Source: a virus. From it: 64,000 nucleotides of DNA. The stretch is taken from positions 32,001-96,000 of the IMG/VR virus record IMGVR_UViG_3300028883_000036; one strand, given 5' to 3'. Below the pieces are notes generated by a model. It saw only the letters and a list, made by a program, of their open reading frames with translations. It did not search any database and was not told the origin of the DNA. Within the stretch, counting starts at the first letter, position 1. Each line of letters begins with the position of its first letter. Below are positions 2,103-54,621 of this stretch, in pieces. A program made the translations under genes and the position numbers.

Positions 2103-2936
2103 TTAATCTCCTTGATTTAACATTTCTTTTATATAATCATTTAATTTTCTTTCAGCTTTAAAATCTATTCTATTTTCTGCTATACTTATATCAGCTACAG
2201 AACTATCTGTACCAATTATTCTACTATCTACAAATTTATAATGATCATTAAATTTTCTTTTTGGAAACATAGCTAATAAATCCATAATAGATGTTCCTAT
2301 GCCTGTTCCTATATCCATAGGTGATTTATCTTTTGGCTGAATCTCTATTATTTTCATAATAGCTTTACATACATCCCAAACATGAACAAAATCTCTTATT
2401 TGTTTACCATCTCCATGAATCAATAATGGTTCATCTTGTCTAAATTTAGTAATAAATTGTTTTACACAAGTTTGTTTTTTAGACAAATATTGATCACCAC
2501 CATAAACATTTGCTAGCCTTATAACATAATTCGAACCAAATTCTTGATTATAAGATTCTGCCATTTTCTCAACAGTCCATTTTATAGAGGCATATAGACT
2601 TGATTTAGGGTCTTTAGCAGCTTGAGAGGATGTAAATACAACTGGAATTTTATATTGGGTACATAGCTTGAAAATGTTTTGAGCACTCAATATATTGTCT
2701 CTTACGGCTTTTACAGGGTCATTTTCACATGCCGCTAACCCACTTAATGCAGCTAAATGAACAACAGCATTATATTTACTGACATTTTTTATATCTTGAG
2801 CTAATGGCCCAATACCACATTTAGATGAATTACTGTAATCACAAATATCAAAAATTACATCATTTCTATATCTGTTTACATAATTATATAAATTTGTTCC
2901 AATATAGCCAAATCCACCAGTTATCAATATTTTCAT
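2103..2936 (-). CDS. NAD-dependent nucleotide-sugar epimerase/dehydratase
   Basis: TGGFGYIG, HLAA, YASIK (YxxxK), RLANVYG and RDFVHVWD motifs. Confidence 0.9.
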   Translation of the reverse strand: MKILITGGFGYIGTNLYNYVNRYRNDVIFDICDYSNSSKCGIGPLAQDIKNVSKYNAVVHLAALSGLAACENDPVKAVRDNILSAQNIFKLCTQYKIPVVFTSSQAAKDPKSSLYASIKWTVEKMAESYNQEFGSNYVIRLANVYGGDQYLSKKQTCVKQFITKFRQDEPLLIHGDGKQIRDFVHVWDVCKAIMKIIEIQPKDKSPMDIGTGIGTSIMDLLAMFPKRKFNDHYKFVDSRIIGTDSSVADISIAENRIDFKAERKLNDYIKEMLNQGD

Positions 2937-3271
2937 TAATTTTTCTCCTTATCAGACCATTTAGGTTCATTCCATAAATGAATATGTTCCCTACCTACTG
3001 TTTTATTTTCTTTTGCATCAGGAACTTTATTCCAATCAATTTCTTCAATATCTTCATCTGCTGCTTCAGGATTATGTAAAAATATATATGCTTTATCATG
3101 TCTAATAAAATCATAATGTTCATCTTTAATCCAAATTCCTATTAGTCCTCTTATTAAAGTTTGAGAAGCACCAATATAAACAGGCAGAAGTTTATTATGT
3201 TTGTCTATTATATGAGTAGGATACCATGTTGATTGATAATCTACTTCATCATTTAAAATTAACCATGCCAT
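2936..3271 (-). CDS. Hypothetical protein
   Basis: 111 aa ORF abutting both neighbours. Confidence 0.6.
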   Translation of the reverse strand: MAWLILNDEVDYQSTWYPTHIIDKHNKLLPVYIGASQTLIRGLIGIWIKDEHYDFIRHDKAYIFLHNPEAADEDIEEIDWNKVPDAKENKTVGREHIHLWNEPKWSDKEKN

Positions 3272-4003
3272 TTAACATCTCCCACAACCACCCATAGTAT
3301 AACCTTTCAACCAAGGATAAGATGAAATTATATCATTTACTACTTTTACTTGATTCTGATTCCATCTAATTTTTGCTCTTGTTATTCTTGGTTTTTTCCA
3401 TACTGTTTCTCTAACATAATCTCTCCATTGAGGATCAAATGAAATTTCTAAAAAGTTAGATATTTCTTCAAGAGTATTATGCATTTTAGTAATAACATCT
3501 TCATGTTTTACTGTCAATATGTCTTCTGATTTTTTAAGTTTATCTATGGTTTGATTTAATTTTTTATATTTCTCTATTACAATATTTAATTCTTTTTTTA
3601 TAGTATTTTTTTCATTATTTTTATTCTGATAATTTAATCTTGCCCAAGTAGCAAGATTATCAAATGGATTTCTTACAACTAGTATCCATTTTAGGGGAAC
3701 TCCTACTTGAGATTTAATTATACCCAATCTTTGAGGATTATTACTTAATATTTCTGTAGTTCGATGCCCTGTTTTATCTCCAATTATAGTAATTTCTTGT
3801 TTTGGAACATGTTTTATTTGAGTAGTACTTTTCCAAGTATGAGGTTTTAAACTATATGATTTTATATAATCTAACGATATTTTTTTTTGAGAAAAAATAT
3901 TTAGTTGATTAGATACCATACAATTTGGATTTGCATTTAAAATAGCAGCAACTAAAGTATGTCCTGATCTTGGAAATCCACAAAAACAAAGAAAATATTT
4001 CAT
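3272..4003 (-). CDS. Sulfotransferase family protein
   Basis: 5'-PSB loop GFPRSGHT, 3'-PB motif VVRNPFDNLAT, and HED motif. Confidence 0.8.
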   Translation of the reverse strand: MKYFLCFCGFPRSGHTLVAAILNANPNCMVSNQLNIFSQKKISLDYIKSYSLKPHTWKSTTQIKHVPKQEITIIGDKTGHRTTEILSNNPQRLGIIKSQVGVPLKWILVVRNPFDNLATWARLNYQNKNNEKNTIKKELNIVIEKYKKLNQTIDKLKKSEDILTVKHEDVITKMHNTLEEISNFLEISFDPQWRDYVRETVWKKPRITRAKIRWNQNQVKVVNDIISSYPWLKGYTMGGCGRC

Positions 4004-4296
4004 AACACCTCATCTTTATGATATTGTCTGGACATTGGTTTAAGCATCTCCCACATATATCTTTTTCTTCTATCTAAAATAAATGCTTTTTCTATTCCAT
4101 GATGTATATTAACACCCTGATTTTTTTTATATTTAGCACTTCTTCTAGTCCTAAGAATATAATATTTATGTAATAACCATTCCTTTTTAGCTTTATAATA
4201 CATTGATTTAAAATCTTTTCTTTTATCTAATAAATTAAATAATTTATTTGAAATAAAATCAAATATAAATATGATATCATATTTATCCATAATCAA
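4000..4296 (-). CDS. Hypothetical protein
   Basis: ORF with AGGAG RBS, in operon. Confidence 0.55.
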   Translation of the reverse strand: MIMDKYDIIFIFDFISNKLFNLLDKRKDFKSMYYKAKKEWLLHKYYILRTRRSAKYKKNQGVNIHHGIEKAFILDRRKRYMWEMLKPMSRQYHKDEVL

Positions 4297-4301
4297 TTCT
4301 C

Positions 4302-4409
4302 CTATTTTTTAATATCTCTTATTTTTTCAATAATTATCATATATGAAACAAAAACAGCTATAAATAATCCAAACAAAGTTCCCCCAATAAATACAAGAAA
4401 CCAAAACAT
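4302..4409 (-). CDS. Small single-TM membrane peptide (35 aa, not in the ORF track)
   Basis: Manual translation MFWFLVFIGGTLFGLFIAVFVSYMIIIEKIRDIKK*; fills the gap between two genes. Confidence 0.5.
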   Translation of the reverse strand: MFWFLVFIGGTLFGLFIAVFVSYMIIIEKIRDIKK

Positions 4410-4411
4410 TT

Positions 4412-4843
4412 TTACATTTTTCCTTCTTTGTTTCTTTTACTAGTTTCAGCAATAGATAAAACTTTATATATATTTTGGCTTGCATATGGCAAGAAAAGTT
4501 TAATATATTTATTCATATAAATTAAATAAACATCTTTTCCTGCTTTCAATCCTTCTTCAAGTTCTTCATGGACTCCTGCTCCAATAACACCATCTGTATA
4601 TGTAACACCAACAATAATATCACATGATCTTGCTATTTCTCTGAAGATTTCAAATGGATTTTTATCTCCTGCTTTTTTTCTTTCCATATATAAATCACTT
4701 AACCATTTCTGATTAGGATTCATAATTTCAATATCTTCATCTGCATCTATCATTATACCAATTATAACAATACAATCCATCTCAATATCTTCATTATAAT
4801 GAACCTTGGGATGTGAAAAATATATAGTTTTTATATCATCCAT
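4412..4843 (-). CDS. Nucleoside 2-deoxyribosyltransferase-like / nucleotide N-hydrolase fold protein
   Basis: IYFSHP ... CDIIV ... GAGVHEEL ... GKDVYLI pattern typical of the NDT fold. Confidence 0.5.
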   Translation of the reverse strand: MDDIKTIYFSHPKVHYNEDIEMDCIVIIGIMIDADEDIEIMNPNQKWLSDLYMERKKAGDKNPFEIFREIARSCDIIVGVTYTDGVIGAGVHEELEEGLKAGKDVYLIYMNKYIKLFLPYASQNIYKVLSIAETSKRNKEGKM

Positions 4844-5556
4844 TGAAATTTAGTCTCCTTAAATTCTTTTTTAATTTTCTCTATATTTGGAAGATAAACA
4901 GAAATATCATCCTTATTCTTCTTTTTTGTTTTAGCATACATTTTTATCTGTTTTACTTTAAAAAAATCACATACAGCTATATTTGCATTATTAGACAAAT
5001 ATGTTTTTTCTCCATCTACTTCACCTATAATATCTTCATAAAATAAAGTTAATTTTATATTTCCTTTTAGTTCTTTTTTCCAGTATTCATTAAATCTATG
5101 AGCTTCTTTTACCATATTAAATAATCGTTTTGGTTCTATAATAACAGGATTATGTTTAGTAGTTGCAGCAGTTAATCCTGAAATAATTTGTTTAACAAGA
5201 TTTTTTCTCATCAAATGAATCATTGGAATACTTTTACCTTTTATATATTCCATAAGTCCTTGATGATATGTTATTTGATTGTACATAATCTTAAAAATAG
5301 TATTTTTATTAGGATATGTCTTGTAAATAACATTCTCTATGTATTCTTTTGGTGTATTAAGATCACTTCTAAGATATGGAACAAAACCTGATTTTCTCAT
5401 TCCTGGTTTTCTTGCCATATTAACAAATACTTCATCTATCCCCATTATATCAGGATGAGAATTAATTGCATTTTGTAAAAATGTAGATCCTACTCTTTTA
5501 TTGGATAGCTGGATAGCTCTTATATATTTTTCCATGTTTCTCCTTATTTTTTTCAT
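4831..5556 (-). CDS. Stf0-like sulfotransferase
   Basis: SNKRVGSTFL, NSHPDI, FKIMY, HLMRKNLVKQIIS and YEDI motifs. Confidence 0.8.
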   Translation of the reverse strand: MKKIRRNMEKYIRAIQLSNKRVGSTFLQNAINSHPDIMGIDEVFVNMARKPGMRKSGFVPYLRSDLNTPKEYIENVIYKTYPNKNTIFKIMYNQITYHQGLMEYIKGKSIPMIHLMRKNLVKQIISGLTAATTKHNPVIIEPKRLFNMVKEAHRFNEYWKKELKGNIKLTLFYEDIIGEVDGEKTYLSNNANIAVCDFFKVKQIKMYAKTKKKNKDDISVYLPNIEKIKKEFKETKFQWMI

Positions 5557-6120
5557 TCATATATCAACTTCCTCAACTTTATATATATTATGTAACCAAT
5601 TTACAATCTTTTCCCATGATATGAAATGCTCTTTATGACATAAATAAGAAGGATCAATTATTTTTCTAACATTATCTTTTTGATTTTCATTAATAATCCA
5701 ATTATCAAATGATTTTCTGCTTACTCCTATTATTTTTTTAGTTTTTTGAGATATCAAAAGTACAACATGGGGTTTTTCTTCTCTTATTTTCCACGAACTA
5801 ACAGTAGATACTATTGCAGTATCAAATGGATAATCAGAAGGACAAGTGAAATTAAGATTTCTTGATTTTACCTCAAATAATATTGGTTTTTTATTAAAAA
5901 TTCCAACCAATAAATCTTTTTGATCTTTGAATTTATGTCTATCATTTATATTTCTTCTTTTTATTGAATCCCTTTTAGGACTACATTTAACTGCAAATCC
6001 TTCATTCATTAATAAAAGACCTATATATAATTCATACTGCCTACCTTTATGTAGTTCATTGAAAAATAGTTCATCATTTTCAAACCAATTAACATCTATT
6101 TCTAAGTTGGGTTTCTTCAT
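5557..6120 (-). CDS. PD-(D/E)XK-like nuclease
   Basis: E ... KDLLV ... FEVKSR arrangement. Confidence 0.5.
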   Translation of the reverse strand: MKKPNLEIDVNWFENDELFFNELHKGRQYELYIGLLLMNEGFAVKCSPKRDSIKRRNINDRHKFKDQKDLLVGIFNKKPILFEVKSRNLNFTCPSDYPFDTAIVSTVSSWKIREEKPHVVLLISQKTKKIIGVSRKSFDNWIINENQKDNVRKIIDPSYLCHKEHFISWEKIVNWLHNIYKVEEVDI

Positions 6121-7699: not shown

Positions 7700-8425
7700 T
7701 TATTTTTTTAAATTTTTTACTCTATCTTTTATTTCAGATGGTCCATATTTTTTTGTATATGATTTTATTTTATCGGGTATATTCAAAAAATTGCTTATAT
7801 TTTTAGTATTTATTATTTCAGCATTTACATCATTTGTCATATCTTCATATGATAATTTTATAGAATTAGAAAATAATGATTCAATCTCTTTATCTTTATT
7901 CTTATTATTTATTATTTTTTGATCTATCTGCTTTATTTGATTTTCTCCTAATTCCATCTTTTTCTTACCATCATGTTTATGCATAAATTGATTAGTATAA
8001 GCTGATATGATTTGCTTTTCTCTATCTTCTCTATATAAATGAACAACTTTTATTTTTCTGTCATTTATATAATTAACTACTTGTGGTAATCGTTTAATAT
8101 GAGGATGTAACAATTTAAATCCTACTATACCATCTTCTTCATAAATACCATCAAGATATTCATATATATCTTTTTTGGTTATATTTTTTAAAGGATATTC
8201 TGTTCCTGTAAAGTTATATTTTTTTGAAAGAAAATTATATAAATTTTTAGGTCTATTCTTTTGTCGAAAATCTTCTATTGATTTCTGTGGATGAGTTTTT
8301 ATAATCATATGATTCATTTTATTTGTTAAAATTTCACCATAAACATTAAATCCATCCAAATTATTTAATGCTATACATAACATTGTAGTTCCTGTTCTAG
8401 GTAAACTTACTATTACAAAATTCAT
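7700..8425 (-). CDS. Stf0-like sulfotransferase
   Basis: SLPRTGTTML, GFKLL, HLYREDREKQIIS and SYEDM motifs. Confidence 0.8.
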   Translation of the reverse strand: MNFVIVSLPRTGTTMLCIALNNLDGFNVYGEILTNKMNHMIIKTHPQKSIEDFRQKNRPKNLYNFLSKKYNFTGTEYPLKNITKKDIYEYLDGIYEEDGIVGFKLLHPHIKRLPQVVNYINDRKIKVVHLYREDREKQIISAYTNQFMHKHDGKKKMELGENQIKQIDQKIINNKNKDKEIESLFSNSIKLSYEDMTNDVNAEIINTKNISNFLNIPDKIKSYTKKYGPSEIKDRVKNLKK

Positions 8426-9615
8426 ATTTTAATTTTCCCCTTATAATCTACTTGCTTATTCTGATTCCATACAGAAGTACATATGATTTTAGACATAATA
8501 ACATTTTTTCTGTATTTATAAGCTACTTCTATAACTTCATCCATTAATCTATCATCTAAATATATAGGTGTAAGACCTAAATTGATTAAACTATCATTAT
8601 GAAATTTAAGATCATTCTTAGAGTCTTCATTTCTTGGATTTTCATAATACCTAATTTCTGCTTTTGTTATTTTATTAATCTTTTTAGCAAGATCATTAAT
8701 ATTTAAACATTCTGTAGTTTGATTAAATATTCTTACTCTATCACCACTTTCAGGTGGATTATCAACAGCTAAATTAATACATTCTACACTATTCTGAATA
8801 TGAATAAATGCCCTTGTTTGTCCACCTGATCCATATACTGTTAATGGATGCCCTACCTGACTCTGCATAAGTAGCCTATTCAATACTGTACCATAATCAC
8901 CATCATAATCAAATCTATTAATAAGCATATCATCAAGTTTAGTTTCATATGTTTGTGTACCCCATACAATACCTTGATGTAAATCAGTAATTCTTACATT
9001 ATCATTCTTATTAAAATATAAAAAAGATATAGCATCAGTACATTTTGTCATATGATAAATCGAACCAGGATTAGGTGGATACATAATTTCAATTTCTTTT
9101 TCTTCTCCATCAACATCTACTTTAACAGGTAAATAACCTTCAGGAATTTTCATACCAACATCACTGTATCCATAATAACCAGTAGTGCCTAAATGAACCA
9201 AGTGTATGTCTATTCCAGATTCTACTATAGCACATAAAACATTATTAGTTGCCATTGTATTATTTTGAATTGTATATCTTTTATGATAAGAAGATTTCAT
9301 AGAAAAAGGTGCTGCTCTTTGTTCAGCTAAATGAATAATCGTATGTGGTTTATATTCTTTAATTAATGTAAGAAGTCTATGATAATTATCTGATATATCG
9401 AAATTAAAATAAAGTATTTTTTTACCACTAATGTCTTCCCATGCTTTAATTCTTTTGCCTATAGGTTGTATTGGTGTAAGTGAACCACATTCAAGTTCAA
9501 TATCAGTATTTCTTCTCGCTAAATTATCTACTATAGCTACATCATGTCCATATCCTGACAGTCTCAAAACAGTCGGCCATCCAATAAAACCATCTCCACC
9601 TAATACTAGTATCAT
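8422..9615 (-). CDS. sqdB: UDP-sulfoquinovose synthase
   Basis: SqdB/SQD1/Agl3 signatures: LGGDGFIGWP, HLAEQRAAPFSM, HLGTTGYYG, PGSIYHMTK, DLHQGIVWG, RFDYDGDYGTVLNR, GQTRAFIHI. Confidence 0.92.
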   Translation of the reverse strand: MILVLGGDGFIGWPTVLRLSGYGHDVAIVDNLARRNTDIELECGSLTPIQPIGKRIKAWEDISGKKILYFNFDISDNYHRLLTLIKEYKPHTIIHLAEQRAAPFSMKSSYHKRYTIQNNTMATNNVLCAIVESGIDIHLVHLGTTGYYGYSDVGMKIPEGYLPVKVDVDGEEKEIEIMYPPNPGSIYHMTKCTDAISFLYFNKNDNVRITDLHQGIVWGTQTYETKLDDMLINRFDYDGDYGTVLNRLLMQSQVGHPLTVYGSGGQTRAFIHIQNSVECINLAVDNPPESGDRVRIFNQTTECLNINDLAKKINKITKAEIRYYENPRNEDSKNDLKFHNDSLINLGLTPIYLDDRLMDEVIEVAYKYRKNVIMSKIICTSVWNQNKQVDYKGKIKI

Positions 9616-12751: not shown

Positions 12752-13652
12752 ATGTCTTATTAGCCCTTTTCTTTTTTCTTCTTTTTATTTCATTTTCAAT
12801 TATAAGTTTTGAATTTCTACCTTCAATTTTTGGTACATGTTCAAATGGTATCCAAGGTGCAAGATGCATAATATTAGTTTCTTGACATATCCCTTCTTTT
12901 CCTGGTTTTCCATTTTCTATTCTCCATTCTTCCATTCTTGCATTTTCTCCAATATGTCTTACCCACCTATATTCACCATGCCCCCCATAAAAATATGCCC
13001 CCATATTTTTTCTTAAATATTCAACATCCTTTTTTTTATCAGGAGTTCTTATAGTATTTGTCATTCTTGCAGGAGCAGTTCTTTTATTTTTATTTTTCAT
13101 TGCTTTTAAACAAATAGGTATTGAAAAACTTGATCTCCAAATAGCAGGTATAAAAGACCATGTTGAATACTGACTTAAAGTTATTCCAGAATCTATTTCA
13201 GGAAATTTAAATTCAGTTAATTTTATATTTGATTTATATTTAGGAATTCTATGTTTAGCAAAAACTATAAGATTTATATCATCTACATTTTCCATTAATC
13301 TTAAAATTCTATCTATTTCAATAGGTCTTTCAAAAATCCAATCATCTTGTAAATTAAAAAAGAAAGGTGTTTTTACCAAATTTAAAGTATAACTTGTTGT
13401 TCCTATTAAACCTAGTGGTGGATTATGATAGTGTATATTTTCTGGTTTAAATATATCTTTTTGATTTTCAGCCCATTTTATTACTTTTTCACTTTCTTTA
13501 GGAATTACAAAATCCTCATGTAATATAAATCTATAATCTCCATAAAAATGAGCAAATTTTAAAAAATGGTCTATTGTATATTTTAATTGTTCCAATCTAC
13601 TTGAAGCAATAACCAAAATATCCATTTTTCTTTTTTCTAATGTATATTCCAT
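12744..13652 (-). CDS. GT2-like glycosyltransferase (paralog of 13659..14657)
   Basis: SSR, ILHED, LQDDWIF and RHIG motifs. Confidence 0.7.
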   Translation of the reverse strand: MEYTLEKRKMDILVIASSRLEQLKYTIDHFLKFAHFYGDYRFILHEDFVIPKESEKVIKWAENQKDIFKPENIHYHNPPLGLIGTTSYTLNLVKTPFFFNLQDDWIFERPIEIDRILRLMENVDDINLIVFAKHRIPKYKSNIKLTEFKFPEIDSGITLSQYSTWSFIPAIWRSSFSIPICLKAMKNKNKRTAPARMTNTIRTPDKKKDVEYLRKNMGAYFYGGHGEYRWVRHIGENARMEEWRIENGKPGKEGICQETNIMHLAPWIPFEHVPKIEGRNSKLIIENEIKRRKKKRANKTYG

Positions 13653-13658
13653 ATTTCA

Positions 13659-16388: not shown

Positions 16389-16433
16389 ATCCTCTAAAAA
16401 TTTTAGAATTTTTAATTATTCTATTTACTCTAT

Positions 16434-17737: not shown

Positions 17738-17738
17738 A

Positions 17739-19362: not shown

Positions 19363-19624
19363 TAATATCCCTATATTTTACCCCGCCATTTACCATAGCT
19401 CTAACTAAAATAGTAGCCATTTTTCTTAAATCATGTAAACAAATTTCAGGAACATCAATATCTTTTTCATTATCATTTTCTTGATAATTTTTTCTAAATT
19501 TATTTAAATATTCTTCTAATAAAATTATTTCTCCCGTAACTGACAATTTTTTTGAATTAGGCCATTTTTTATCTTGATATTCTCTTTCTTCTGCTATTGC
19601 TTCTAATGCATGTTGTATATCCAT
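19355..19624 (-). CDS. MazG-like all-alpha NTP pyrophosphohydrolase-like protein
   Basis: AIAEEREYQDKKW ... LLEE ... LRKMATILVRAM pattern. Confidence 0.45.
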   Translation of the reverse strand: MDIQHALEAIAEEREYQDKKWPNSKKLSVTGEIILLEEYLNKFRKNYQENDNEKDIDVPEICLHDLRKMATILVRAMVNGGVKYRDINE

Positions 19625-19638
19625 TATATCTCCTTTTT

Positions 19639-20571: not shown

Positions 20572-20580
20572 ATTATTCTC

Positions 20581-20781: not shown

Positions 20782-20791
20782 AAAATTTTCC

Positions 20792-32955: not shown

Positions 32956-32965
32956 TTTTTATTCC

Positions 32966-45576: not shown

Positions 45577-45589
45577 TATTCAATTCTCC

Positions 45590-45967
45590 TTATCGTGTTA
45601 ATATAAAACTCACAGTTTCAACTTCATCACTACCTATTATTGTAAAGTTGAGTCTACATCTGTATGCATTTTGATCATACAATGGTTCAATATCAAATCT
45701 TGTAATATCAATTCTATTTTCCCAAATTTTAATAGCATCAATTAAATTTTCCGCTATTTGTCTTGCAGAAATTTCATCAATAGGTTCAAACAAAAGATGT
45801 TTTACATTAGAAGCAAAAGTAGGTAGCATTCTTCTTTCCCCTTGAACAGTCAAAATAATATTAGTTATACTATTAAATATTGCATCCACATCAGTATCTT
45901 TTTCAACATCTCCATCAGACTGTTTTGTAAAACTTCCATCATAATCACTATAAAATACTGTTGCCAT
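45590..45967 (-). CDS. gp25: Baseplate wedge / sheath initiator gp25-like
   Basis: YSD, AIFNSITNIILT..GER.M.PTF, LLFEP and WENRI motifs. Confidence 0.9.
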   Translation of the reverse strand: MATVFYSDYDGSFTKQSDGDVEKDTDVDAIFNSITNIILTVQGERRMLPTFASNVKHLLFEPIDEISARQIAENLIDAIKIWENRIDITRFDIEPLYDQNAYRCRLNFTIIGSDEVETVSFILTR

Positions 45968-46346
45968 TTTTTATCCTCTTTGGGTTTATTTTAATAGAAT
46001 CTATCTTTCTATCTTTATTTATCTTTAATTGTTTGCATTTTTTAGAATTTTCAGTAATTAATATGCATTCTGTTTCTTCTTTTGCTTTTTTATTATATAA
46101 AATGATATGTTTTTTCTTTTTATAATATTCTTTATTATATTTCTTTATTGCATTTTTATTATTCTTCTTCCATTTTTCATTACATTTCTGTTGTATTAAT
46201 TTTCCTTTTTGAGAAGATTTATATTTTTTGGTAATTTTTCTCATACAATCCCTACAATATATATTTTTACCATCAGGATTAGATGTTTTTTTACCAAACT
46301 TCCCAATTTTTCTATTTCTACCACAACATTTACATATCTTCTTCAT
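45948..46346 (-). CDS. Basic Zn-finger protein resembling the N-terminus of HNH-type homing endonucleases
   Basis: CKCC ... F ... DG ... CRDC; no nuclease domain follows. Confidence 0.5.
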   Translation of the reverse strand: MKKICKCCGRNRKIGKFGKKTSNPDGKNIYCRDCMRKITKKYKSSQKGKLIQQKCNEKWKKNNKNAIKKYNKEYYKKKKHIILYNKKAKEETECILITENSKKCKQLKINKDRKIDSIKINPKRIKNGNSIL

Positions 46347-46497
46347 TTTTTTTATGTTTCTTTTTTCTACTATATTTTGATTTATCTTTAAAAAATTGAC
46401 TACCTTTAGCAGTAGGAATTCTTAATGCTTTCTTTTGATCTAAAGTATCTCTTTTTTTCTTTTTAGCTTCAGGTAAATATTTATCTATCAAATTCAT
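46330..46497 (-). CDS. Small basic protein with capsid-targeting-like leader (55 aa, not in the ORF track)
   Basis: Manual translation MNLIDKYLPEAKKKKRDTLDQKKALRIPTAKGSQFFKDKSKYSRKKKHKKNEEDM*; AGGAG upstream; starts 1 nt after the cca stop. Confidence 0.7.
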   Translation of the reverse strand: MNLIDKYLPEAKKKKRDTLDQKKALRIPTAKGSQFFKDKSKYSRKKKHKKNEEDM

Positions 46498-46498
46498 T

Positions 46499-47929
46499 CT
46501 AAACTCCTGTTATCTTTTTGATATATTTTTCAATTTCTTCTTTGTCTTCTATATCATGGTCCATTATCCATTCTGTAGTTTGAGTTATTATCTTTCCAAT
46601 TTTAGGTCCAGGTTTTAATCCTGTCCATTTTATTACATCTTTACCATCCACCAATTTAATCTGTTTATTGAGTTGTTTAGCACCAAACTTTTCTTTAACC
46701 TTAACGGCTTTATCAACAATTTTTTCAAATTCTCCTGCATGACTAAACATATGTCCTCTTGCATATTCATCAGCTTTTCCAACACTAACCAATACATCCC
46801 AATTATTATCAGAAACAAGTTTAGCTATTTTAGAAGGTTTCATATCAAGAATCTTATGAAACTTCATATGATTTCCAACTGCAAATATAAGAGCATCTTT
46901 TTCTTTATTACTCATTCTTAATCTATCAGCTATAGCATTCACTAAATCAATTGATTTCCTAGCATGACCAAGATATTTGGGTAATCCTTTATCATGAGAC
47001 AAAGTTATACCTTTACCTACATCGTGTAAAAGTATAGCCAAATTTTTAATCGGATCAGCAGAATCACTCTTTTTAAGTGCTGCCATGACATGACTATATA
47101 CTGTACCACCTTGCCCCCTTGTTTCTGGATGATGTTGTAAATTTTCTCTATACCATTTCAAATTAACTATTTCAGGTAATATATGTTTAAGAAGTTTTAA
47201 CTTATCCAACATATCAATATATTTTGCAAATTTATCTCCACTCTGAGAAGCAGATTTCATCAATTCATCTTTAATTCTTTCAGGTGCAAGTCCTGTTATA
47301 TTATGAGCTAATTTTTGTGCTGCTTTACTTGTATTTTTATCAACCTCAAAATCAAGTTTAGCTGCAAATCTTGCAAGTCTCATCATCCTCAAATAATCCT
47401 CACCAAACCGCTTGTAAGGATCACCAACAGTTTTTAAAACTTTATCTTTGATATCCCTCTTACCATCAAAATAATCTACAATTTCACCCTTAGAATTGAT
47501 TCCCATTGCATTTATAGTAAAATCTCTCCTTTCAACATCCTCTTTAAACTTTCCTGTTATTGTAACCGATTCTGGTCTTCTACCATCAAAATAAGTTCCA
47601 TCATTTCTAAACTGAGCTATTTCAAAATCATATCCACCTTGTTTCACAACTACAATTCCAAAACTTTTTGATTTACCTATATCATATGTTTTAAACATAG
47701 TAGATAATTCATCCATAGGCATATTAGTTGCTATATCAACATCATGAGGTTTTAAATTACCTAATACAATATCTCTTACACTTCCACCTACTATATAAGC
47801 CTTATATTTCTTCTTATTTATCTTATTTAGTATATCAACAGCTACTTTTAATTCTTTATTTCTTCTTATATAAGATTGCCAATCTTGTAATTTTTCTTTT
47901 GCTTCATTCAAATATCTTGTTAGTCTCAT
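46499..47929 (-). CDS. cca: Class II tRNA nucleotidyltransferase (CCA-adding enzyme) with HD domain
   Basis: VGGSVRD, DVDIAT, EDVERRDFTINAM, RFGEDYLRMMR and ERI..EL; HD domain HHPE ... H ... LLHDVGK. Confidence 0.88.
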   Translation of the reverse strand: MRLTRYLNEAKEKLQDWQSYIRRNKELKVAVDILNKINKKKYKAYIVGGSVRDIVLGNLKPHDVDIATNMPMDELSTMFKTYDIGKSKSFGIVVVKQGGYDFEIAQFRNDGTYFDGRRPESVTITGKFKEDVERRDFTINAMGINSKGEIVDYFDGKRDIKDKVLKTVGDPYKRFGEDYLRMMRLARFAAKLDFEVDKNTSKAAQKLAHNITGLAPERIKDELMKSASQSGDKFAKYIDMLDKLKLLKHILPEIVNLKWYRENLQHHPETRGQGGTVYSHVMAALKKSDSADPIKNLAILLHDVGKGITLSHDKGLPKYLGHARKSIDLVNAIADRLRMSNKEKDALIFAVGNHMKFHKILDMKPSKIAKLVSDNNWDVLVSVGKADEYARGHMFSHAGEFEKIVDKAVKVKEKFGAKQLNKQIKLVDGKDVIKWTGLKPGPKIGKIITQTTEWIMDHDIEDKEEIEKYIKKITGV

Positions 47930-48348
47930 TATATATACCCATATTTTTTTGCATTTTTTATTGATTTATTAGACATAGCAACAGGAATTTTTTTCATACC
48001 TAAATCTCTTAATACAGCATATCTATGTCTTCCATTTCCAAAAGATATTCTACCAATATCATCAATATCAACAGAAGAAACTATAATATTTCCTTCAGGA
48101 GATTCACCTAACCATCTTTTTCTTTCATCTTCTGGTTTTTCTATAATTTCTTTAAACATTTTATATCTACCACCAATAGCATTCCCACTTCCACCTTTAC
48201 CAATATAAAAATTTTTATCCCTTGACCATTCTTTATCAAATTTATTAACAATTACTTTTACAATTTTTCTATCAGTTTCAAATTTAGCCTTTTCAAATTT
48301 TAAAGACTTCAAATCAATTCCTTCATTCAAATATCTTTTAAATTTCAT
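47929..48348 (-). CDS. Stand-alone ParB/Srx-like domain protein
   Basis: NGRHRYAVLRDLGMKKIPV motif; N-terminal MKFKRYLNEG leader. Confidence 0.6.
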   Translation of the reverse strand: MKFKRYLNEGIDLKSLKFEKAKFETDRKIVKVIVNKFDKEWSRDKNFYIGKGGSGNAIGGRYKMFKEIIEKPEDERKRWLGESPEGNIIVSSVDIDDIGRISFGNGRHRYAVLRDLGMKKIPVAMSNKSIKNAKKYGYI

Positions 48349-49061
48349 TAAAAATACCTCTTTGGATTTTTAGTAGAACTACCTGTAGCAGCATTAATAG
48401 TTTCATTTATTTCTTTCTGAACTATTTCTGATTTAGCTTTAAAAGATTTTATATTATCTTTTAATGCAGTATCAAATCCTGTCATTAATATATCTTCATC
48501 AAAACTTCCATCTTCCGCAAGATATAAATCATCTGTAACTGTAGTAACTCTATCTTGTAATAATTGTATTTGATCTGCATATTCTGATGCCTGTTGTGAT
48601 AAAGAAACACATTGTAATTTTTTATTTATTGCAGCAATTAAATCACTAATTTCACTAGTAAGCCCCCAAATTTTTTGTAAAGCTTTCATCAAATCACTTT
48701 CAGGTAATGCCAATATTTCACTAATAGCATCTAATCCATCTTCAATATTATTCAATACATTATTCGCATATTTTTTTATATTAGCCAAAGCAATACTTAA
48801 ACAATCTCCTACAAGATCATTTATAGGTTCAATATCTGATACTGATGCACATAAAACTTCAGAAGTCAAAGCATTTAAAGCAGTATTAATAGTACTAGAT
48901 GGAGATATGCTATTAGGATCAAAACCTGTTCCTTGAGATCTAAAATCATCTACATATGGAGTTATCCCTCTTGCTTGTGCTTCAAGTGTATCTATCTCCC
49001 CTGTACTTGTATCTATAATATTTTGTAAAGGATCTATACTATTATTTTGATTACAAGTCAT
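48348..49061 (-). CDS. Hypothetical helical protein (baseplate-gene neighbour)
   Basis: 237 aa with GGAG RBS, directly downstream of gp5. Confidence 0.6.
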   Translation of the reverse strand: MTCNQNNSIDPLQNIIDTSTGEIDTLEAQARGITPYVDDFRSQGTGFDPNSISPSSTINTALNALTSEVLCASVSDIEPINDLVGDCLSIALANIKKYANNVLNNIEDGLDAISEILALPESDLMKALQKIWGLTSEISDLIAAINKKLQCVSLSQQASEYADQIQLLQDRVTTVTDDLYLAEDGSFDEDILMTGFDTALKDNIKSFKAKSEIVQKEINETINAATGSSTKNPKRYF

Positions 49062-49069
49062 ATCTTCTC

Positions 49070-50338
49070 CTAGCTTGCTTGAGTATTTGTTGTTAATTCA
49101 CTAGAACTCATTTGTTGATTAGGTGGATCAGTAGTTCCCCCACCATCACCATTTTCTTTATGAGTATGAGAATTATACACTGAAGCAGCAGTAGCATTCA
49201 TTATTTTCTTTAATGATCCTTGATTAGCAAGATTTACTGTTCCTGTTAAATTTATTGTAGGAGCAGTAACAGTAGTAGTACCATCTGATGTAATATTAGC
49301 TGCTCCTGTTACAGTAATATTTAATGCACCACCAATATCTTCTGTTTTATTACCACCAATATCTTCTGTTTTATTACCATCAATATCTTCTGTTTTATTA
49401 CCATCAATATCTTCTGTTTTATTACCACCAATATCTTCTGTTTTATTACCACCAATAGTTTGACTCATGTTATTTGTAATTTGTTCTTCTTTGCTACCAT
49501 TTATTTCTATAGTTTCATCTTCAGCTATTCTCTTTTTTGATCCTGCATCTATAGTAAGATTTCTTTGTTGTTTAATATGAATGTTTTTACCTTCAGCAAT
49601 TATTTCATATTTTTCTCCATCATTTTTAACAACCATATTTCCATTATTATCAATTTCAATAAAACTATTAGATGGATGATAAAGATGTAATCTAGTAGAA
49701 CCAGGAGTTGAATCTAATTCAATTGTTATTCCACCATGAGTAGCAATAACATGATTATGAGGATATTGTGAATTATAAGGTGAAATGGGTTCCGACCAAC
49801 TACCACCCAAAGCTGTTGGAACACCTAAATCTCTTTCATTATTTTTTGTTGTTACTAAAGTTTCTTTTGATATTCCTCTTGATAATCTATGAAAATCAGG
49901 TTCACCTAATCTACCATTAACAGGATATTGCCCATCAGGATCTTTAAAGCCATCACTTTTATTTGTTTCTCTATTATTATTTGAATATTGTTCCTTTGAT
50001 TCAGGTATTCCTGGCAAAGAAGCAAAATATCTTGGTTCAGAAGGATTAGAATTTTCAAAAAATACCATTACTTGTGACCCTTGTAATGGAACAGCCCATG
50101 AACCAAATCCACTTATAGATCCTTCATGAATAGGCATACAAGGTTCAGCCCAAGGTAATTCATCTGTTGGTATACCTTCTATATCATTCTTTGTAATCTT
50201 TGGTGTATGTAATCCATGTATTCTTATTCTAACTCTACCTGCTTTTAATGGATCTTTATTATCTTCAACAACACCACGATAAAAACCAGTTAAATTTTCA
50301 ATATTAATTCTTAAATCTTTTGGTGGATTTTTAAGCAT
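49070..50338 (-). CDS. gp5: Baseplate central spike gp5-like (no lysozyme domain)
   Basis: GVVEDNKDPLKAGRVRIRIHGLH, LPWA, YPHNHV, 8-aa beta-helix repeats and an HTH apex motif (YNSHTH). Confidence 0.88.
   Translation of the reverse strand: MLKNPPKDLRINIENLTGFYRGVVEDNKDPLKAGRVRIRIHGLHTPKITKNDIEGIPTDELPWAEPCMPIHEGSISGFGSWAVPLQGSQVMVFFENSNPSEPRYFASLPGIPESKEQYSNNNRETNKSDGFKDPDGQYPVNGRLGEPDFHRLSRGISKETLVTTKNNERDLGVPTALGGSWSEPISPYNSQYPHNHVIATHGGITIELDSTPGSTRLHLYHPSNSFIEIDNNGNMVVKNDGEKYEIIAEGKNIHIKQQRNLTIDAGSKKRIAEDETIEINGSKEEQITNNMSQTIGGNKTEDIGGNKTEDIDGNKTEDIDGNKTEDIGGNKTEDIGGALNITVTGAANITSDGTTTVTAPTINLTGTVNLANQGSLKKIMNATAASVYNSHTHKENGDGGGTTDPPNQQMSSSELTTNTQAS
49330..49456. repeat. 24-bp tandem repeat encoding (G/D)GNKTEDI beta-helix
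   Basis: Five copies of CAATATCTTCTGTTTTATTACCA(C/T). Confidence 0.9.
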
Positions 50339-50346
50339 TATTACTC

Positions 50347-51666
50347 CTATTTACTTAATATTCTTATTTGTTGAATATCTCCTTCTTGACGTATATTTGT
50401 TATTTTTGATTTATATAAAATTTTACTATCAATATTTGTATATGCATTTTTAATTAAAACTAATCTTTGCCTATATGGATATGTACTACCTGGATCAAAT
50501 GAATGAGTGACACTTTTTATTAAATATTTACCTTCAAGCAAATCGTTATAAGCTACATAATCTCCTTTATTTCTAAATGCACTAGGCCAAGCTATCTGTA
50601 TTTGCTGTCCTGCAAATCTTTTTTCATGTCCTTCAACAATTAAATTTACAATAAATTGCATATTATATCTTTTTGACCAATCATTATAAGCTATATTATC
50701 AAGAAGAAAATCATCATTCCCACCAACAATAACATTTGATGATAAAACATCATCCATTTGATTATATAAAGTTTTACTGCCTAGCATAACAGTATTATCA
50801 GCCCCATCTGAATATACATATTCATGATTTAATAATTTCTTTGTATTAAAATCATATCCTTTCCATACTCCACCTCTTAAAACTGAATTTGAATTTCTAT
50901 CAAGCCCACTCATCCACCATTCAAGGATCTTATTTTCAGCAGATACTTCTGCTTTATCAAATGAATATTTTATAGGATCATATGTTTTTCCTAAATCATA
51001 TAACAAGTAATTCATTGTAACAAGATTATGACTAATTCCTTTATCTGTATTATTAAAACATAAATACCCACTTGTTCCTGAATCTTTCCCCTTTGCCCTT
51101 CTCATTAACCATCTCATAGCTGTTTGAGGATTCCAATAGGGAATAATAAAATCTGTTTTATTACTACTTTCTTCTACATTAAAAACTCTACCAGCTTGTT
51201 TAAAAAATACCATATTATTCAATATATCTTTCATTATATCAGAATAATATTTATCACTCCAACTTCTACTATATTTTCTTAAAGAAAAACCAGTATAAAA
51301 TGGATCAACAAAATTCATAGTAATAAGATTATCACTTTCTTCTCTCATACCTGAACCTGTTTGTTGAATCTTACCAACTTTCCATATGTCAAAAATTAAT
51401 TCTCTATTCTTTTGTTTTCCATCTTTCCCAACAGAATATATAATAGCTAACTTTTCATTTCCTGTAAATGGGCCATATTGCATTATATTATATCTATCAT
51501 TTATAGTAATAGTTCCAGTAAGACAGAACTTAAATATATCTTCTATAAAATATAATTTATTAATATCTGCATTGTTTAAAACAATAGGTTGTTTTTCTGT
51601 AATTAACAATACACTAAAAATATTTTTTTTAAGTTCTACCTTTCCTTTATCATAATCTGTTTGCAT
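50347..51666 (-). CDS. Baseplate hub (gp27-like) protein
   Basis: IEDIF ... GTITIND, FIIPYWNP and GKYLIKSVTH; located between gp53 and gp5. Confidence 0.7.
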   Translation of the reverse strand: MQTDYDKGKVELKKNIFSVLLITEKQPIVLNNADINKLYFIEDIFKFCLTGTITINDRYNIMQYGPFTGNEKLAIIYSVGKDGKQKNRELIFDIWKVGKIQQTGSGMREESDNLITMNFVDPFYTGFSLRKYSRSWSDKYYSDIMKDILNNMVFFKQAGRVFNVEESSNKTDFIIPYWNPQTAMRWLMRRAKGKDSGTSGYLCFNNTDKGISHNLVTMNYLLYDLGKTYDPIKYSFDKAEVSAENKILEWWMSGLDRNSNSVLRGGVWKGYDFNTKKLLNHEYVYSDGADNTVMLGSKTLYNQMDDVLSSNVIVGGNDDFLLDNIAYNDWSKRYNMQFIVNLIVEGHEKRFAGQQIQIAWPSAFRNKGDYVAYNDLLEGKYLIKSVTHSFDPGSTYPYRQRLVLIKNAYTNIDSKILYKSKITNIRQEGDIQQIRILSK

Positions 51667-51667
51667 A

Positions 51668-52054
51668 TTATTCTTCCGCTATTTTTTCAAGATCTGTTAT
51701 TAATTGATATACATAATCATCTCTCAAAACATTTAATAAATCACCATCTTCAAGTTCTTCAAATGGATTTGAAATATTATTTAATAGTGCTATAACCCAC
51801 CATAAATAAGGAGTATTATAAAGATTATAAGAAACATTATCCCAATATTCACCATTTGATACTTCATATGTTTCAAAAAATGAAATATCACTAAGAATAT
51901 CTTCATTAACTATATAACTTCTAAAAATATTCATAAATTTAGTTTCTCTATCTTCATCTAATAAAATATTAAATAATCTTAAAAAACTAAATGAATTTCT
52001 TTCAACACCCGTTAATTCAAAAAAACTTTTAGTAGTGTATTCAGTTACAGACAT
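51668..52054 (-). CDS. gp53: Baseplate wedge gp53-like (LysM-like)
   Basis: YEVSNGEYWDNVSYNLYNTPYLWWVIALLNNISNPF. Confidence 0.85.
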   Translation of the reverse strand: MSVTEYTTKSFFELTGVERNSFSFLRLFNILLDEDRETKFMNIFRSYIVNEDILSDISFFETYEVSNGEYWDNVSYNLYNTPYLWWVIALLNNISNPFEELEDGDLLNVLRDDYVYQLITDLEKIAEE

Positions 52055-52438: not shown

Positions 52439-52459
52439 TATTTTAGGGAGATTTTAAAA

Positions 52460-52791: not shown

Positions 52792-52820
52792 ATCATATAT
52801 CATAAAAACGCTAATGTCAA
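52792..52820 (-). promoter_or_regulatory. Near-consensus sigma70 promoter
   Basis: Minus strand TTGACA-N17-TATGAT. Confidence 0.75.
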
Positions 52821-53476
52821 GTATTTTTTATCAATGGTTTAATAAAATCTTTAAAAACTCTCATATATTTTAAATGATAATCATCATTTGATCCTGCCGA
52901 TATATCATTTTTTGTACTATGAGCTATAAAATATGCATTTGGTTCAGGAACACCAATATAACCATTCGCAAAACATTTCAATAAAAATGCATAATCTAAT
53001 AATCTCTTATATTTATTATCAGTTACAAGCTTAACTTTTTCAATCACAGTCGATCTAAATAACGAATTCGAACTTATATAATTACCTTGAATTAACCTAT
53101 TAATATCATAAGGCATTGCTGGAAAACTAGCATTTATATGCCCCTTAAACTGAAATGATGCATAACAATACCCAATATTTGAATTCATATTATTCAATTT
53201 ATCATATAATTTGTCAAGTAAATTCCTACCAGCTTCAATATCACGATCAATCATCATATAGTAAGGTGGTAGCTTACCAAACTTATTTTTAAACCATTTA
53301 ATGCCCTCTATGGCATTTGTGGGTATGTTTTTATTACCTGCACTTGATATCCAATAAAAAGGAGTTTTATTCCTTTTTAATGTTTTTTTGGTATGCTTGC
53401 TTATATTATGATCTGGTAATAATGGAGTAACAACCAAAATTTGAGGATTTTTACATTCTTTAATAATATTAATCAT
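52817..53476 (-). CDS. GT2-like glycosyltransferase
   Basis: ILVVTP, MIDRD (DxD), NYISSNSLFR and KRLLDYAFLL motifs. Confidence 0.7.
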   Translation of the reverse strand: MINIIKECKNPQILVVTPLLPDHNISKHTKKTLKRNKTPFYWISSAGNKNIPTNAIEGIKWFKNKFGKLPPYYMMIDRDIEAGRNLLDKLYDKLNNMNSNIGYCYASFQFKGHINASFPAMPYDINRLIQGNYISSNSLFRSTVIEKVKLVTDNKYKRLLDYAFLLKCFANGYIGVPEPNAYFIAHSTKNDISAGSNDDYHLKYMRVFKDFIKPLIKNT

Positions 53477-53494
53477 AAAAGTACCATATCATAT

Positions 53495-53502
53495 TATTTA
53501 TA
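53495..53502 (-). promoter_or_regulatory. T4-type late promoter TATAAATA, nested in a possible TTTACA-N17-TATGGT sigma70 promoter
   Basis: Intergenic, about 20 nt upstream of the GT2-like gene. Confidence 0.55.
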
Positions 53503-53518
53503 AATTGTAAAGATTTTT

Positions 53519-54499
53519 TTATGGATTAGCATATGGAGAAGATGGTGGTGTAAAATCTACTCCTTGATATGCTGCATAATTTAATATTCTAAGTTCATCA
53601 ATATACATATCTATATTATTACTTCCATCACCATCAAATCCAATTCTTAATGGATCTCCATTATCATATATCGTTCCAGAAAATGCTACAGGTGAATTAT
53701 CTTTTGTTCCATTCCAATAGAAATATAAATTATTTCCATATCTCTCAAAAGCAAAATGTCTCCATGATGCTGCTCCAATATAATATGAACCACCAACATG
53801 AGTCCATGCACCAGCACCAGCAGTAGCTACAGCAAATGTTGGTCTTCCTGCTCCTTGTGTTTGAAGTTTTCCCCAACGATAAGAATTAGCAGTAATACTT
53901 TTACTTATAAAATGAGAATCACCAGGATAATCTACAAGACGCATCCAGCAATCAATAGTAAAATCTTTATCACCAAAAGCAAGTACTGAATGATGAGCAA
54001 CATCAAGCCAAGTATTTGCTGCTACATGACATGAATAACTTCCAAATTTAGACGTTCCAGACCTTACAGCACCATTTAAAGTTACACTATGACTATAATT
54101 TGATGAATCAGTCAATCCTACATCATCCATATGCATTAAAAGAATTATTTGTTCTGTTGCACTCTCACTACTTGAAGAACTTTTACTACTTGAGCTTGAA
54201 GATTCAGAGCTTGAACTTATAGAACTGCTACTTTCAGAGCTTGAACTTATAGAACTGCTACTTTCAGAGCTTGAACTTGAAGATTCAGAGCTTGAACTTA
54301 TAGAACTGCTACTTTCAGAGCTTGAACTTATAGAACTGCTACTTTCAGAGCTTGAACTTATAGAACTACTACTTTCAGAGCTTGAACTTATAGAACTGCT
54401 ACTTTCAGAGCTTGAACTTATAGAACTACTACTTGAACTACTTGAAGATGATCTTATAGTAATATAAAAAGCTAAATTTTGTTGTGATTTAAAACTCAT
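53519..54499 (-). CDS. Poly-Ser stalk plus LamG/ConA-like domain virion protein
   Basis: Short head, ~95 aa of Ser repeats, then LLMHMD, SKFG, DFTIDCW, WRHFAFER and YIDELRI. Confidence 0.78.
   Translation of the reverse strand: MSFKSQQNLAFYITIRSSSSSSSSSSISSSSESSSSISSSSESSSSISSSSESSSSISSSSESSSSISSSSESSSSSSESSSSISSSSESSSSISSSSESSSSSSKSSSSSESATEQIILLMHMDDVGLTDSSNYSHSVTLNGAVRSGTSKFGSYSCHVAANTWLDVAHHSVLAFGDKDFTIDCWMRLVDYPGDSHFISKSITANSYRWGKLQTQGAGRPTFAVATAGAGAWTHVGGSYYIGAASWRHFAFERYGNNLYFYWNGTKDNSPVAFSGTIYDNGDPLRIGFDGDGSNNIDMYIDELRILNYAAYQGVDFTPPSSPYANP
54203..54430. repeat. 30-bp tandem repeat encoding ESSSSISSSS
   Basis: Repeated AGAGCTTGAACTTATAGAACTGCTACTTTC units. Confidence 0.9.
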
Positions 54500-54501
54500 A
54501 T

Positions 54502-54621
54502 TTATCCTGTACTTGTAGAAGAACTAGAAACAGAACTAGAACTAGAACTTAAAGAACTTGAACTGCTTGAGCTACTTGAACTTGATGATCTAAATACTAT
54601 TTCATAATATAAATCTGCCAT
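54502..54621 (-). CDS. Poly-serine micro-protein (39 aa, not in the ORF track)
   Basis: Manual translation MADLYYEIVFR-S12-L-S6-V-S4-TSTG*; AGAGG RBS; fills the gap between neighbours exactly. Confidence 0.7.
   Translation of the reverse strand: MADLYYEIVFRSSSSSSSSSSSSLSSSSSSVSSSSTSTG

Follow-up and report, generated by a model that had tools for sequence, protein, structure and literature searches.

Does a phage that carries both a large island of sugar- and sulfate-modifying genes and a set of fibre proteins rich in poly-serine use the first to decorate the second? The question is raised by a 64,000-nucleotide stretch of viral DNA (the window), bases 32001-96000 of the single 107,655-bp viral contig IMGVR_UViG_3300028883_000036, for which CheckV estimates a completeness of ~51%. 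The original prediction was a mucin-like system in which the island at 2103-22902 makes a sulfated glycan and poly-Ser stalks of the virion accept it. Our analysis separates what that reading merged: with roughly even confidence we propose that the window holds three distinct things, namely modular fibres, a small cassette coupling an RCC1-repeat fibre head to two glycosyltransferases (GTs), and the sugar island. Judged from the genes, we slightly favour the view that phage GTs glycosylate at least one virion protein, and consider it doubtful that the poly-Ser tracts are major glycan acceptors. A sugar coat on serine stalks is possible and unproven; what the comparison of relatives ties to a fibre protein is one small enzyme cassette only.

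An RCC1 fibre head and its glycosyltransferases

The cassette comprises three minus-strand genes, named here, like all others, by their first window coordinate: 39286 (39286-43437), 38627 (38627-39268) and 37411 (37411-38604), in that order and with gaps of 17 and 22 nt. The first encodes a large baseplate protein (residues 1-987) that continues, after a poly-Ser linker of 38 residues, into an RCC1 propeller with seven blades (residues 1026-1383; Pfam RCC1 and WD40_RLD). Profile libraries assigned no GT family to 37411, to 38627 or to a third enzyme, 52817, returning only weak TPR-type matches at the N-terminus of 37411. The AF2 model of 37411 (pLDDT 94) presents four TPR repeats (residues 1-133) followed by a GT9-like GT-B domain; Foldseek ranked SPY and OGT at the top for the whole chain, while alignment of residues 150-397 (VIA) gave Z scores of 18.4 for 3tov, 17.9 for WaaF (1psw), 17.0 for WaaC (2h1f) and 16.8 for TibC. 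The motifs E-G-G-I-G-D-E and S-C-T-x-x-A-H are invariant across 40 homologues. By modelled fold and motifs 37411 is therefore predicted to be of the CAZy GT9 type, with no Pfam PF01075 match for 37411 itself. That GTs lie beside the poly-Ser genes, as originally proposed, holds by high-confidence fold for 37411 and for 52817 (52817-53476, minus strand; pLDDT 93), a GT-A-fold enzyme whose Foldseek matches include TarP, WrtF, AvpGT and SpsA, whereas for 38627 a GT8-like GT-A identity is a lead from an ESM-Atlas structure (TM 0.82 to GT8 clusters). Fused GT8 and GT9 viral proteins exist, and in P0024, a homologue from the 37411 family, a PAPS-type sulfotransferase lies N-terminal to the GT9 domain, a fusion that ties sulfation to this enzyme family.

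The best four IMG/VR homologues of 37411 all adjoin proteins with a match to the RCC1 portion of 39286. More broadly, an RCC1-repeat gene is present in 72 of 80 phage loci with a 37411-family (TPR-GT9) gene; among these 72 it lies on the same strand in 66, upstream in 62 and within 500 nt in 56, with a median gap of 177 nt. Control loci contained none (0/77 viral SqdB loci, 1.2 Mb; 0/38 loci of the 52817 family, 0.69 Mb; 0/115 in total). An open reading frame (ORF) rich in serine or threonine (S/T-rich) occurs within 10 kb in five of the 80 TPR-GT9 loci (6%), the same frequency as in the SqdB loci (5/77, 6%). The gene contexts of the homologues P0002-P0020 (44-74% identity) were left out of the comparison. 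The conserved partner of the 37411 family is the RCC1 head rather than poly-Ser.

The arrangement in close relatives bears on how the cassette arose. Among 26 related phage records compared here, 25 of them gathered through the 52817 family, G001 (132 kb) and G002 (45 kb) show synteny to the window, and in both the homologue of 36498 directly abuts that of 39286, so that 37411 and 38627 are missing. The N-terminal part of 39286 is conserved at 58-64% identity in G001-G003, which lack the RCC1 module. Because G001 and G002 are without both module and cassette, the RCC1 head and the two GTs were evidently acquired together, downstream of the poly-Ser joint. We found no paper on an RCC1-GT cassette in the literature searched, and matches combining RCC1 with phage were false, RCC there denoting the Roscoff Culture Collection.

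We propose that the RCC1 head (the 39286 C-terminus), the GT8-like 38627 and the TPR-GT9-like 37411 form a mobile decoration cassette. Before assembly, a freshly translated fibre protein would bind to the TPR domain of 37411 in the cytoplasm; Ser/Thr residues in the propeller, or in the Ser stalk next to it, would then receive sugars, first from the GT9-like domain and next from the GT8-like enzyme. Glycosylation, acceptor and sugar are all what we infer here from the gene identities, folds, distribution and RCC1-GT coupling described, and fibre decoration by RCC1-coupled GTs is plausible on that basis. Partner proteins keep an (R/K)-S-S-P motif in their RCC1 blades; we weighed it as a possible acceptor site and set it aside, since it may be structural.

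Two further RCC1 arrangements were seen among the relatives. In G022 (L222), ~8 tandem RCC1-propeller paralogues of ~150-370 aa lie at ~13300-22000 of a record that has SqdB, a sulfotransferase and GT4, and neither a TPR-GT9 homologue nor poly-Ser. In G012 (4455-6074) and G013 (32685-34337), proteins of 539-550 aa whose GT8-like N-terminal part is 28-31% identical to 38627 adjoin giant RCC1-repeat proteins, and these appear to be a second GT family travelling with RCC1 genes.

Several known systems resemble the proposed one in part. TibC, acting on TibA, and AAH, acting on AIDA-I, are cytoplasmic heptosyltransferases (BAHT) that glycosylate autotransporters (PMC4358343). The GT9-type GT-B fold of 37411 is common to both (its Z score of 16.8 for TibC being tied with those for WaaC and WaaF), as, by analogy, is the placing of a soluble cytoplasmic enzyme gene beside a repeat-rich adhesin-like protein, which would be its Ser substrate before export or assembly. 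However, the modelled N-terminal domain of 37411 is a TPR domain and not the beta-barrel of TibC, which places it outside the BAHT group, and its partner is a phage RCC1 propeller/poly-Ser fibre instead of an autotransporter. An N-terminal TPR substrate-binding domain with a C-terminal GT-B domain is the architecture, and it is by architecture that we compare it, of FlmG, the flagellin O-glycosyltransferase of Caulobacter (PMC7591256), as well as of OGT and SPINDLY. FlmG acts in the cytoplasm on Ser/Thr of a protein whose assembly follows outside the cell, and by analogy 37411 may do the same. Despite this likeness to the TPR-GT41 enzymes OGT and SPINDLY, the catalytic domain of 37411 aligns better to GT9, and there is no Pfam GT41 match in 37411 or its listed homologues.

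To our knowledge, glycosylation of phage virions has been demonstrated solely in mycobacteriophages. As summarised in PMC12363180, GTs of Che8, Corndog and Myrna glycosylate the phages' own virion proteins (Freeman et al., 2023), the targets being capsid and tail-tube subunits of siphoviruses of Actinobacteria. The present phage would be alike in encoding GTs for its own structural proteins, known here from genes, and unlike in that the system of that summary has no sulfation, poly-Ser stalks or RCC1 heads.

Poly-serine stalks and their distribution

The prediction of seven or more late genes with long poly-Ser tracts was borne out, with seven in the window (30820, 32966, 35155, 36498, 39286, 53519 and 54502) and an eighth at the contig end. 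The tracts are confined to the minus-strand coding frame and to late genes, and within them AGT, TCA, TCT and AGC codons are interleaved; this restriction and the mixture of AGY and TCN codons point to selection of serine at the protein level rather than to chance or to a plain repeat in the DNA. Within the tracts, residues E, I, L, K or V recur periodically.

The proteins, all encoded on the minus strand, are modular. Splitting 30820 (30820-32955), a fibre or decoration protein, at its Ser tracts gives modules at residues 1-189, 278-451 and 506-711 linked by two poly-Ser stalks; these globular modules had no match in PHROGs, NCBIfam or PDB sequence searches, the N-terminal one is 43% identical to residues 403-617 of 32966, and homologues with poly-Ser occur in G001 and G002. 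The product of 32966 (32966-35137) is 43% Ser and runs from M-A-S8 through a domain at 20-170, a 230-residue Ser stalk and a domain at 403-617 to a Ser-rich tail, its start being marked by a clean stop, a ribosome-binding site (RBS) and an ATG. The adjacent 35155 (35155-35685) consists of an anchor-type N-terminal domain with a terminal poly-Ser tail, and together with residues 20-170 of 32966 it makes up a split copy of the 36498/35672 paralogue family. Within that family 36498 (36498-37376), a baseplate-associated protein, has poly-Ser at both ends and longer, more Ser-rich homologues in G001 and G002, and its paralogue at 35672-36478 has no poly-Ser. In 53519 (53519-54499) a 16-residue head and a 97-residue poly-Ser stalk precede a ConA/LamG lectin-like domain (Pfam Laminin_G_3, E=1e-14); this slot is hypervariable, being filled in relatives by poly-Ser proteins of 577-2219 aa and in G005 by a collagen-like fibre. 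Finally, 54502 (54502-54621) is a 39-aa ORF with an 11-residue head, a poly-Ser tail and an RBS-like AGAGGA ahead of its ATG. Gene junctions within the Ser tracts show clean stops, RBS-like sequences and ATG starts, and the free Ser tails and ORF 54502 are for this reason taken as genuine gene features and not frameshift artefacts. The contig itself breaks off inside another LamG-type protein (genome 106649-107653), in an (S8K)n tract of 94 residues, so the assembly was probably broken by poly-Ser repeats and further genes of this kind may follow.

No paper on poly-Ser phage fibres was found in the literature searched. A close likeness is to the polyserine linkers of secreted carbohydrate-active enzymes (CAZymes) in Saccharophagus, Teredinibacter, Cellvibrio and Xanthomonas albilineans (PMC2386152, PMC2699552, PMC3542200), extracellular proteins in which near-homopolymeric Ser runs likewise connect modules that fold independently and often bind carbohydrate. 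In 30820, 32966, 39286 and 53519 the Ser runs lie between two folded modules in the same manner; the terminal tails, in 35155, 36498, 32966 and 54502, fall outside that description, and the present tracts also differ in reaching lengths of 97-230 residues, in their periodic residues and in belonging to virion proteins.

The related records were scored for poly-Ser, for homologues of window genes and for the Pfam sulfotransferase and GT4 families. Poly-Ser was scored by ORF-level counts, an IUPAC (WSN)12 pattern having been dropped as noisy because Asp-rich and collagen-like tracts match it too. Poly-Ser was found in G000-G003, G006, G023, G024 and G009, which on the 52817 tree form one subclade plus one outlier (G009). 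G001 and G002 have both poly-Ser homologues and an island with SqdB, yet five relatives (G008, G010, G013, G018 and G022) combine glycan genes and a covered baseplate module with neither poly-Ser nor S/T-rich fibres; G018 and G022 have a sulfotransferase and GT4, and G008, G010 and G013 an SqdB-like gene and GT4, the SqdB of G022 being 41% identical. With these five islands, and with S/T-rich ORFs at 6% of loci, the expected co-occurrence of poly-Ser genes with GT/sulfotransferase islands fails, and since G000-G002 belong to one clade their own co-occurrence counts as a single phylogenetic event. The enzymes that were to link island and stalks fare no better. G001 and G002 lack 37411 and 38627, and the 52817 family is present in 26/26 records (38-75% identity), mostly without poly-Ser; in deeper relatives its homologue adjoins 22033 and uvsX, or an SDR, with no poly-Ser nearby. 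The 22033 family is clade-wide as well, and among the records no GT was gained specifically together with poly-Ser. The proposed chain from island through sulfated glycan to poly-Ser acceptor is thus not supported. The wider idea of a phage glycan shown on virion proteins keeps the soluble, cytoplasmic GTs within the fibre operon, the RCC1 coupling of 37411 and the sulfotransferase fusions in its favour, without support for a specific poly-Ser link.

The closest 37411/38627 pair elsewhere is in L230, one locus returned by a single metagenome scan, where adjacent homologues (64% and 71% identity) share a sugar island with genes for a GT4, DegT, a CmcI methyltransferase and a Mom-family protein, and poly-Ser is absent. 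At 5051-9077 of L230, beside the Mom-family protein, the DegT aminotransferase is interrupted by an intein with a LAGLIDADG endonuclease.

Collagen-like (GSS/GTS)n stalks occur in fibre proteins of G005, G014 and G015. The G005 fibre follows the homologue of 54629, that is, it occupies the slot of 53519, and in its N-terminal domain it shows a weak similarity (E=0.004) to the corresponding domain of 36498. Because distant relatives carry such stalks, one of them in the 53519 slot, poly-Ser looks primarily like a stalk and appears to be a lineage-specific kind, while the island appears to be a variable region found across the clade, without a specific tie to it. The fibres would be built from an anchor domain or short head, a long poly-Ser tract and lectin-like heads (ConA/LamG, the RCC1 propeller and other beta-rich modules). 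The tracts would serve primarily as long, hydrophilic, flexible stalks, and may double as recombination joints for the swapping of head modules.

The sugar island and what it may do

The island (2103-22902, ~21 kb) encodes ~29 soluble proteins, all on the minus strand, and is bordered by a thymidylate-synthase (TS)-like gene, 1283, on one side and by dUTPase/uvsX on the other. Pfam, NCBIfam, PHROGs and PDB searches show it to be a sugar/sulfate gene island, and they confirmed SqdB, the SDR epimerase (2103), WbqC (15244, E=1e-52) and two acetyltransferases (9643 and 16434), which are of the hexapeptide type and paralogues of each other. Elsewhere the predicted inventory was upheld in part. Three of the four sulfotransferases are firm (3272, 7700 and 11476) and the fourth is weak (4831, E=0.009); methyltransferases were found at 6124 and 10167, the third not being confirmed; and the PIG-L deacetylase 14642 is a weak match (E=0.007). 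Of the roughly seven GTs, two are firm (the mutual paralogues 18313 and 20792, both GT4), the others being leads: GT-B-like for 19639 and 22033, and a weak GT-A match for the paralogue pair 12744/13659. The lead for 22033 comes from the ESM Atlas and includes T4 beta-glucosyltransferase-like clusters, and the similarity of the 20792 C-terminal GT4 to TIGR02918 is generic (E=6e-4; cut-off 575). Many island ORFs had no match in PHROGs, NCBIfam or PDB sequence searches.

The island has no membrane proteins, each product showing at most one hydrophobic 19-mer above 1.6 KD, with 12071 the single case. No Pfam family for a flippase or transporter, a polymerase or a priming phosphoglycosyltransferase was matched in it, which sets it apart from Wzx/Wzy- or ABC-dependent loci. 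It is equally unlike the glycosylation loci of serine-rich repeat proteins (SRRPs; GtfA/GtfB with aSec), as no GT in the window matched Pfam DUF1975 (GtfA-type GT4) and there are no secretion genes. APS kinase is not present, an absence that is uninformative in a ~51%-complete contig.

The best-defined member is 8422 (8422-9615, minus strand), a predicted UDP-sulfoquinovose synthase of the SQD1/SqdB family with full-length homology to Arabidopsis SQD1 (1qrr; E=1e-85, residues 2-384). The catalytic motifs LGTTG (Thr) and Y-H-x-x-K that characterize the family are kept, S-I-Y-H-M-T-K being aligned with the latter. Its match to NF041015 (E=1e-96, 324 bits) lies under the 575-bit equivalog cut-off; that model may be narrow, because JGI names cellular homologues at 58-68% identity UDP-sulfoquinovose synthase. 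It resembles the SQD1, SqdB and Agl3 synthases in length and conserved catalytic residues, and is unlike them in being phage-borne, in having no recognisable SqdX, SqdC or SqdD partner and in falling short of that cut-off. Homologues are present in G001 (86% identity) and G002 (75%) and on 77 IMG/VR viral contigs (L231-L307, 39-86%), suggesting that phage-borne UDP-sulfoquinovose synthase is widespread; within the literature searched, no paper described a phage sqdB. A host or cellular donor was sought from SqdB without success, its best matches (58-67% identity) being scattered over many phyla. As Agl3 illustrates, UDP-sulfoquinovose can feed protein glycans and not just sulfolipid. The island would be a source of UDP-sulfoquinovose and other modified nucleotide sugars, and may feed or modify fibre sugars, given that in other phages a sulfotransferase fused to GT9 connects sulfation with the GT family of 37411.

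A number of observations weigh against our division into stalks, cassette and island. L230, the closest 37411 homologue with context, has no RCC1 gene on its 17-kb contig, and in G005, G012, G013, G014 and G022 RCC1 proteins are present with no TPR-GT9 detected. Adjacency may reflect co-mobility and not an enzyme-substrate relation. Clearly non-structural genes, such as that of a CCA-adding enzyme (46499), also sit in the baseplate operon of this clade, which makes late-operon position weak evidence for a virion role. The terminal poly-Ser tails of 32966, 36498, 35155 and 54502 link nothing and are left unexplained by a pure linker role, and the modification itself is not readable from sequence.

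For the island, the main rival is remodelling of host envelope glycans, an explanation we hold to be possible, if clearly short of likely. Its soluble enzymes would modify lipid-linked intermediates of host lipopolysaccharide (LPS), capsular polysaccharide or exopolysaccharide, which the host would export, so that superinfection is blocked or progeny are kept from adsorbing to debris, and poly-Ser would be a bare linker. In its favour, the island lies among early/middle-type genes (uvsX, gp46/47, dUTPase, TS-like) outside the structural block, its gene content varies among relatives in the manner of a hyperplastic region, WbqC and GT4 are typical O-antigen-cluster families, and islands without S/T-rich fibres exist. 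Marine T4-like phages (cyanophages) carry LPS/polysaccharide gene clusters in hyperplastic regions; these too place many nucleotide-sugar and GT genes, with no export genes, in one large and variable block of a T4-like genome, although the present island is much larger (~29 genes) and has several sulfotransferases and SqdB. Polyserine spacers, too, are known from secreted bacterial CAZymes (PMC2386152, PMC2699552). However, genes for a priming phosphoglycosyltransferase, a flippase, a polymerase and a ligase are all absent from the island, and the RCC1-GT9 coupling is left unexplained.

Less probable is the full mucin or proteoglycan model, with the island's sulfated or sulfonated, methylated and acetylated O-glycan laid densely on poly-Ser as an anionic brush on the fibres. 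Both SRRPs and mucins carry O-glycans on their Ser-rich tracts, the island is soluble-only, and neither the terminal poly-Ser tails nor the 39-aa ORF of head and poly-Ser can be linkers. Furthermore, the poly-Ser relatives with enough coverage (G000-G002) all have SqdB and GT4, G000 and G001 have sulfotransferases, and the sulfotransferase-GT9 fusion exists. Yet those three relatives are one clade and one event, G001 and G002 are without 37411 and 38627, the 52817 and 22033 families are clade-wide with no GT gained alongside poly-Ser, five relatives have islands without poly-Ser or S/T-rich fibres, and S/T-rich ORFs accompany just 6% of SqdB and of TPR-GT9 loci. We therefore consider this model improbable, and rate no higher the version in which a far-T4 marine lineage makes a viral 'mucin' wholly from its own genes: a sulfated or sulfoquinovose O-glycan, extended and modified by the island, which the TPR-GT9 and GT8 enzymes would place, while still in the cytoplasm, on poly-Ser stalks and RCC1 heads.

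Two minor rivals concern other acceptors. The clade-core pair 22033 (GT-B-like) and 52817 (GT-A) might glycosylate phage DNA of hydroxymethylpyrimidine type, as in T-even phages. Consistent with this, the pair lies beside uvsX in deeper relatives, the divergent TS-family gene 1283 abuts the island with dUTPase at its other side near uvsX, the Atlas lead for 22033 includes T4 beta-glucosyltransferase-like clusters, the nucleoside GT AvpGT is among the fold matches of 52817, and the L230 island has a Mom-family gene. Against it, 1283 has the Cys and dUMP-type Asn expected of an ordinary thymidylate synthase, with no hydroxymethylase-specific feature shown, and sulfotransferases with ~30 sugar genes far exceed the needs of any known DNA modification, so that we think this explanation very unlikely. 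Least likely of all is that SqdB and GT4 make SQDG or another sulfoglycolipid in the infected cell and so spare phosphorus for phage DNA synthesis, for although SqdB is well supported and co-occurs with GT4 genes across the clade, and SqdX and SQD2 are themselves GT4 members, there is no SqdX-specific match, the GT4s are generic, the neighbours of SqdB are a sulfotransferase and an acetyltransferase, and the rest of the island is unaccounted for.

The phage and the meaning of its fibres

The phage belongs to a distant, uncultured T4-like (Straboviridae/Kyanoviridae-type) myovirus lineage. Pfam identified a T4-type core of gp5 (49070), gp6-like (43864), gp25 (45590), gp53-like (51668), UvsX (24572), a fused gp47/gp46 Mre11-Rad50 protein (26449) and a gp55-like sigma factor (29650), the T4-type baseplate core (43864-52054, minus strand) framing the fibre genes. 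Its distance is apparent from identities of just 25-30% to cultured isolates and from the lack of any match for 52817 among 50,697 GenBank phage records. GC content is ~26%. One marine-sediment metagenome run matches 0.99 of the sampled words of the stretch and may be its source, a second run matching 0.13; no RNA run is listed among the sequencing runs checked. Occurrences of the T4 late-promoter octamer TATAAATA number 22 against 29 expected, so it is not enriched and gives no guide to expression timing.

Several neighbouring genes have features of their own. Within gp5, a 24-nt tandem repeat (49328-49457, 5.4 copies, 98% identical) probably encodes beta-helix needle repeats. The dUTPase ORF (23523-24575, minus strand) has a LAGLIDADG_3 domain (Pfam E=2e-9) within its N-terminal half, followed by the dUTPase domain, which suggests a homing-endonuclease or intein-like insertion or fusion. 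Between gp46/47 and uvsX lies a 116-aa RF-1 domain protein (peptidyl-tRNA hydrolase, ArfB-like; 26064-26414, minus strand) that is kept in G001 and G002. The gp47 (Mre11-type phosphoesterase) and gp46 (Rad50/SMC) functions form one ORF of 1061 aa (26449-29634, minus strand), fused also in G001 and G002 and split in G004 and G005. The enzyme of the CCA-adding/poly(A) polymerase family within the baseplate operon (46499-47929, minus strand) is 81-86% identical in relatives, above the surrounding baseplate proteins. The divergent thymidylate-synthase-family protein at the island border (1283-2101, minus strand), which lies near uvsX in relatives too, matches by its C-terminal half alone, with catalytic Cys and dUMP-type Asn kept.

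If phage enzymes do place a sugar or sulfate coat on these fibres, then receptor binding, host range, stability, stickiness towards marine polymers and antigenicity would hinge on chemistry that annotation hides. The RCC1-GT9 pairing offers a compact three-gene unit in which this is directly testable. At the same time, the comparison cautions that a GT island near low-complexity Ser tracts is not automatically one system with them. The presence of SqdB on 77 IMG/VR contigs would bring viruses into the marine organosulfur cycle.

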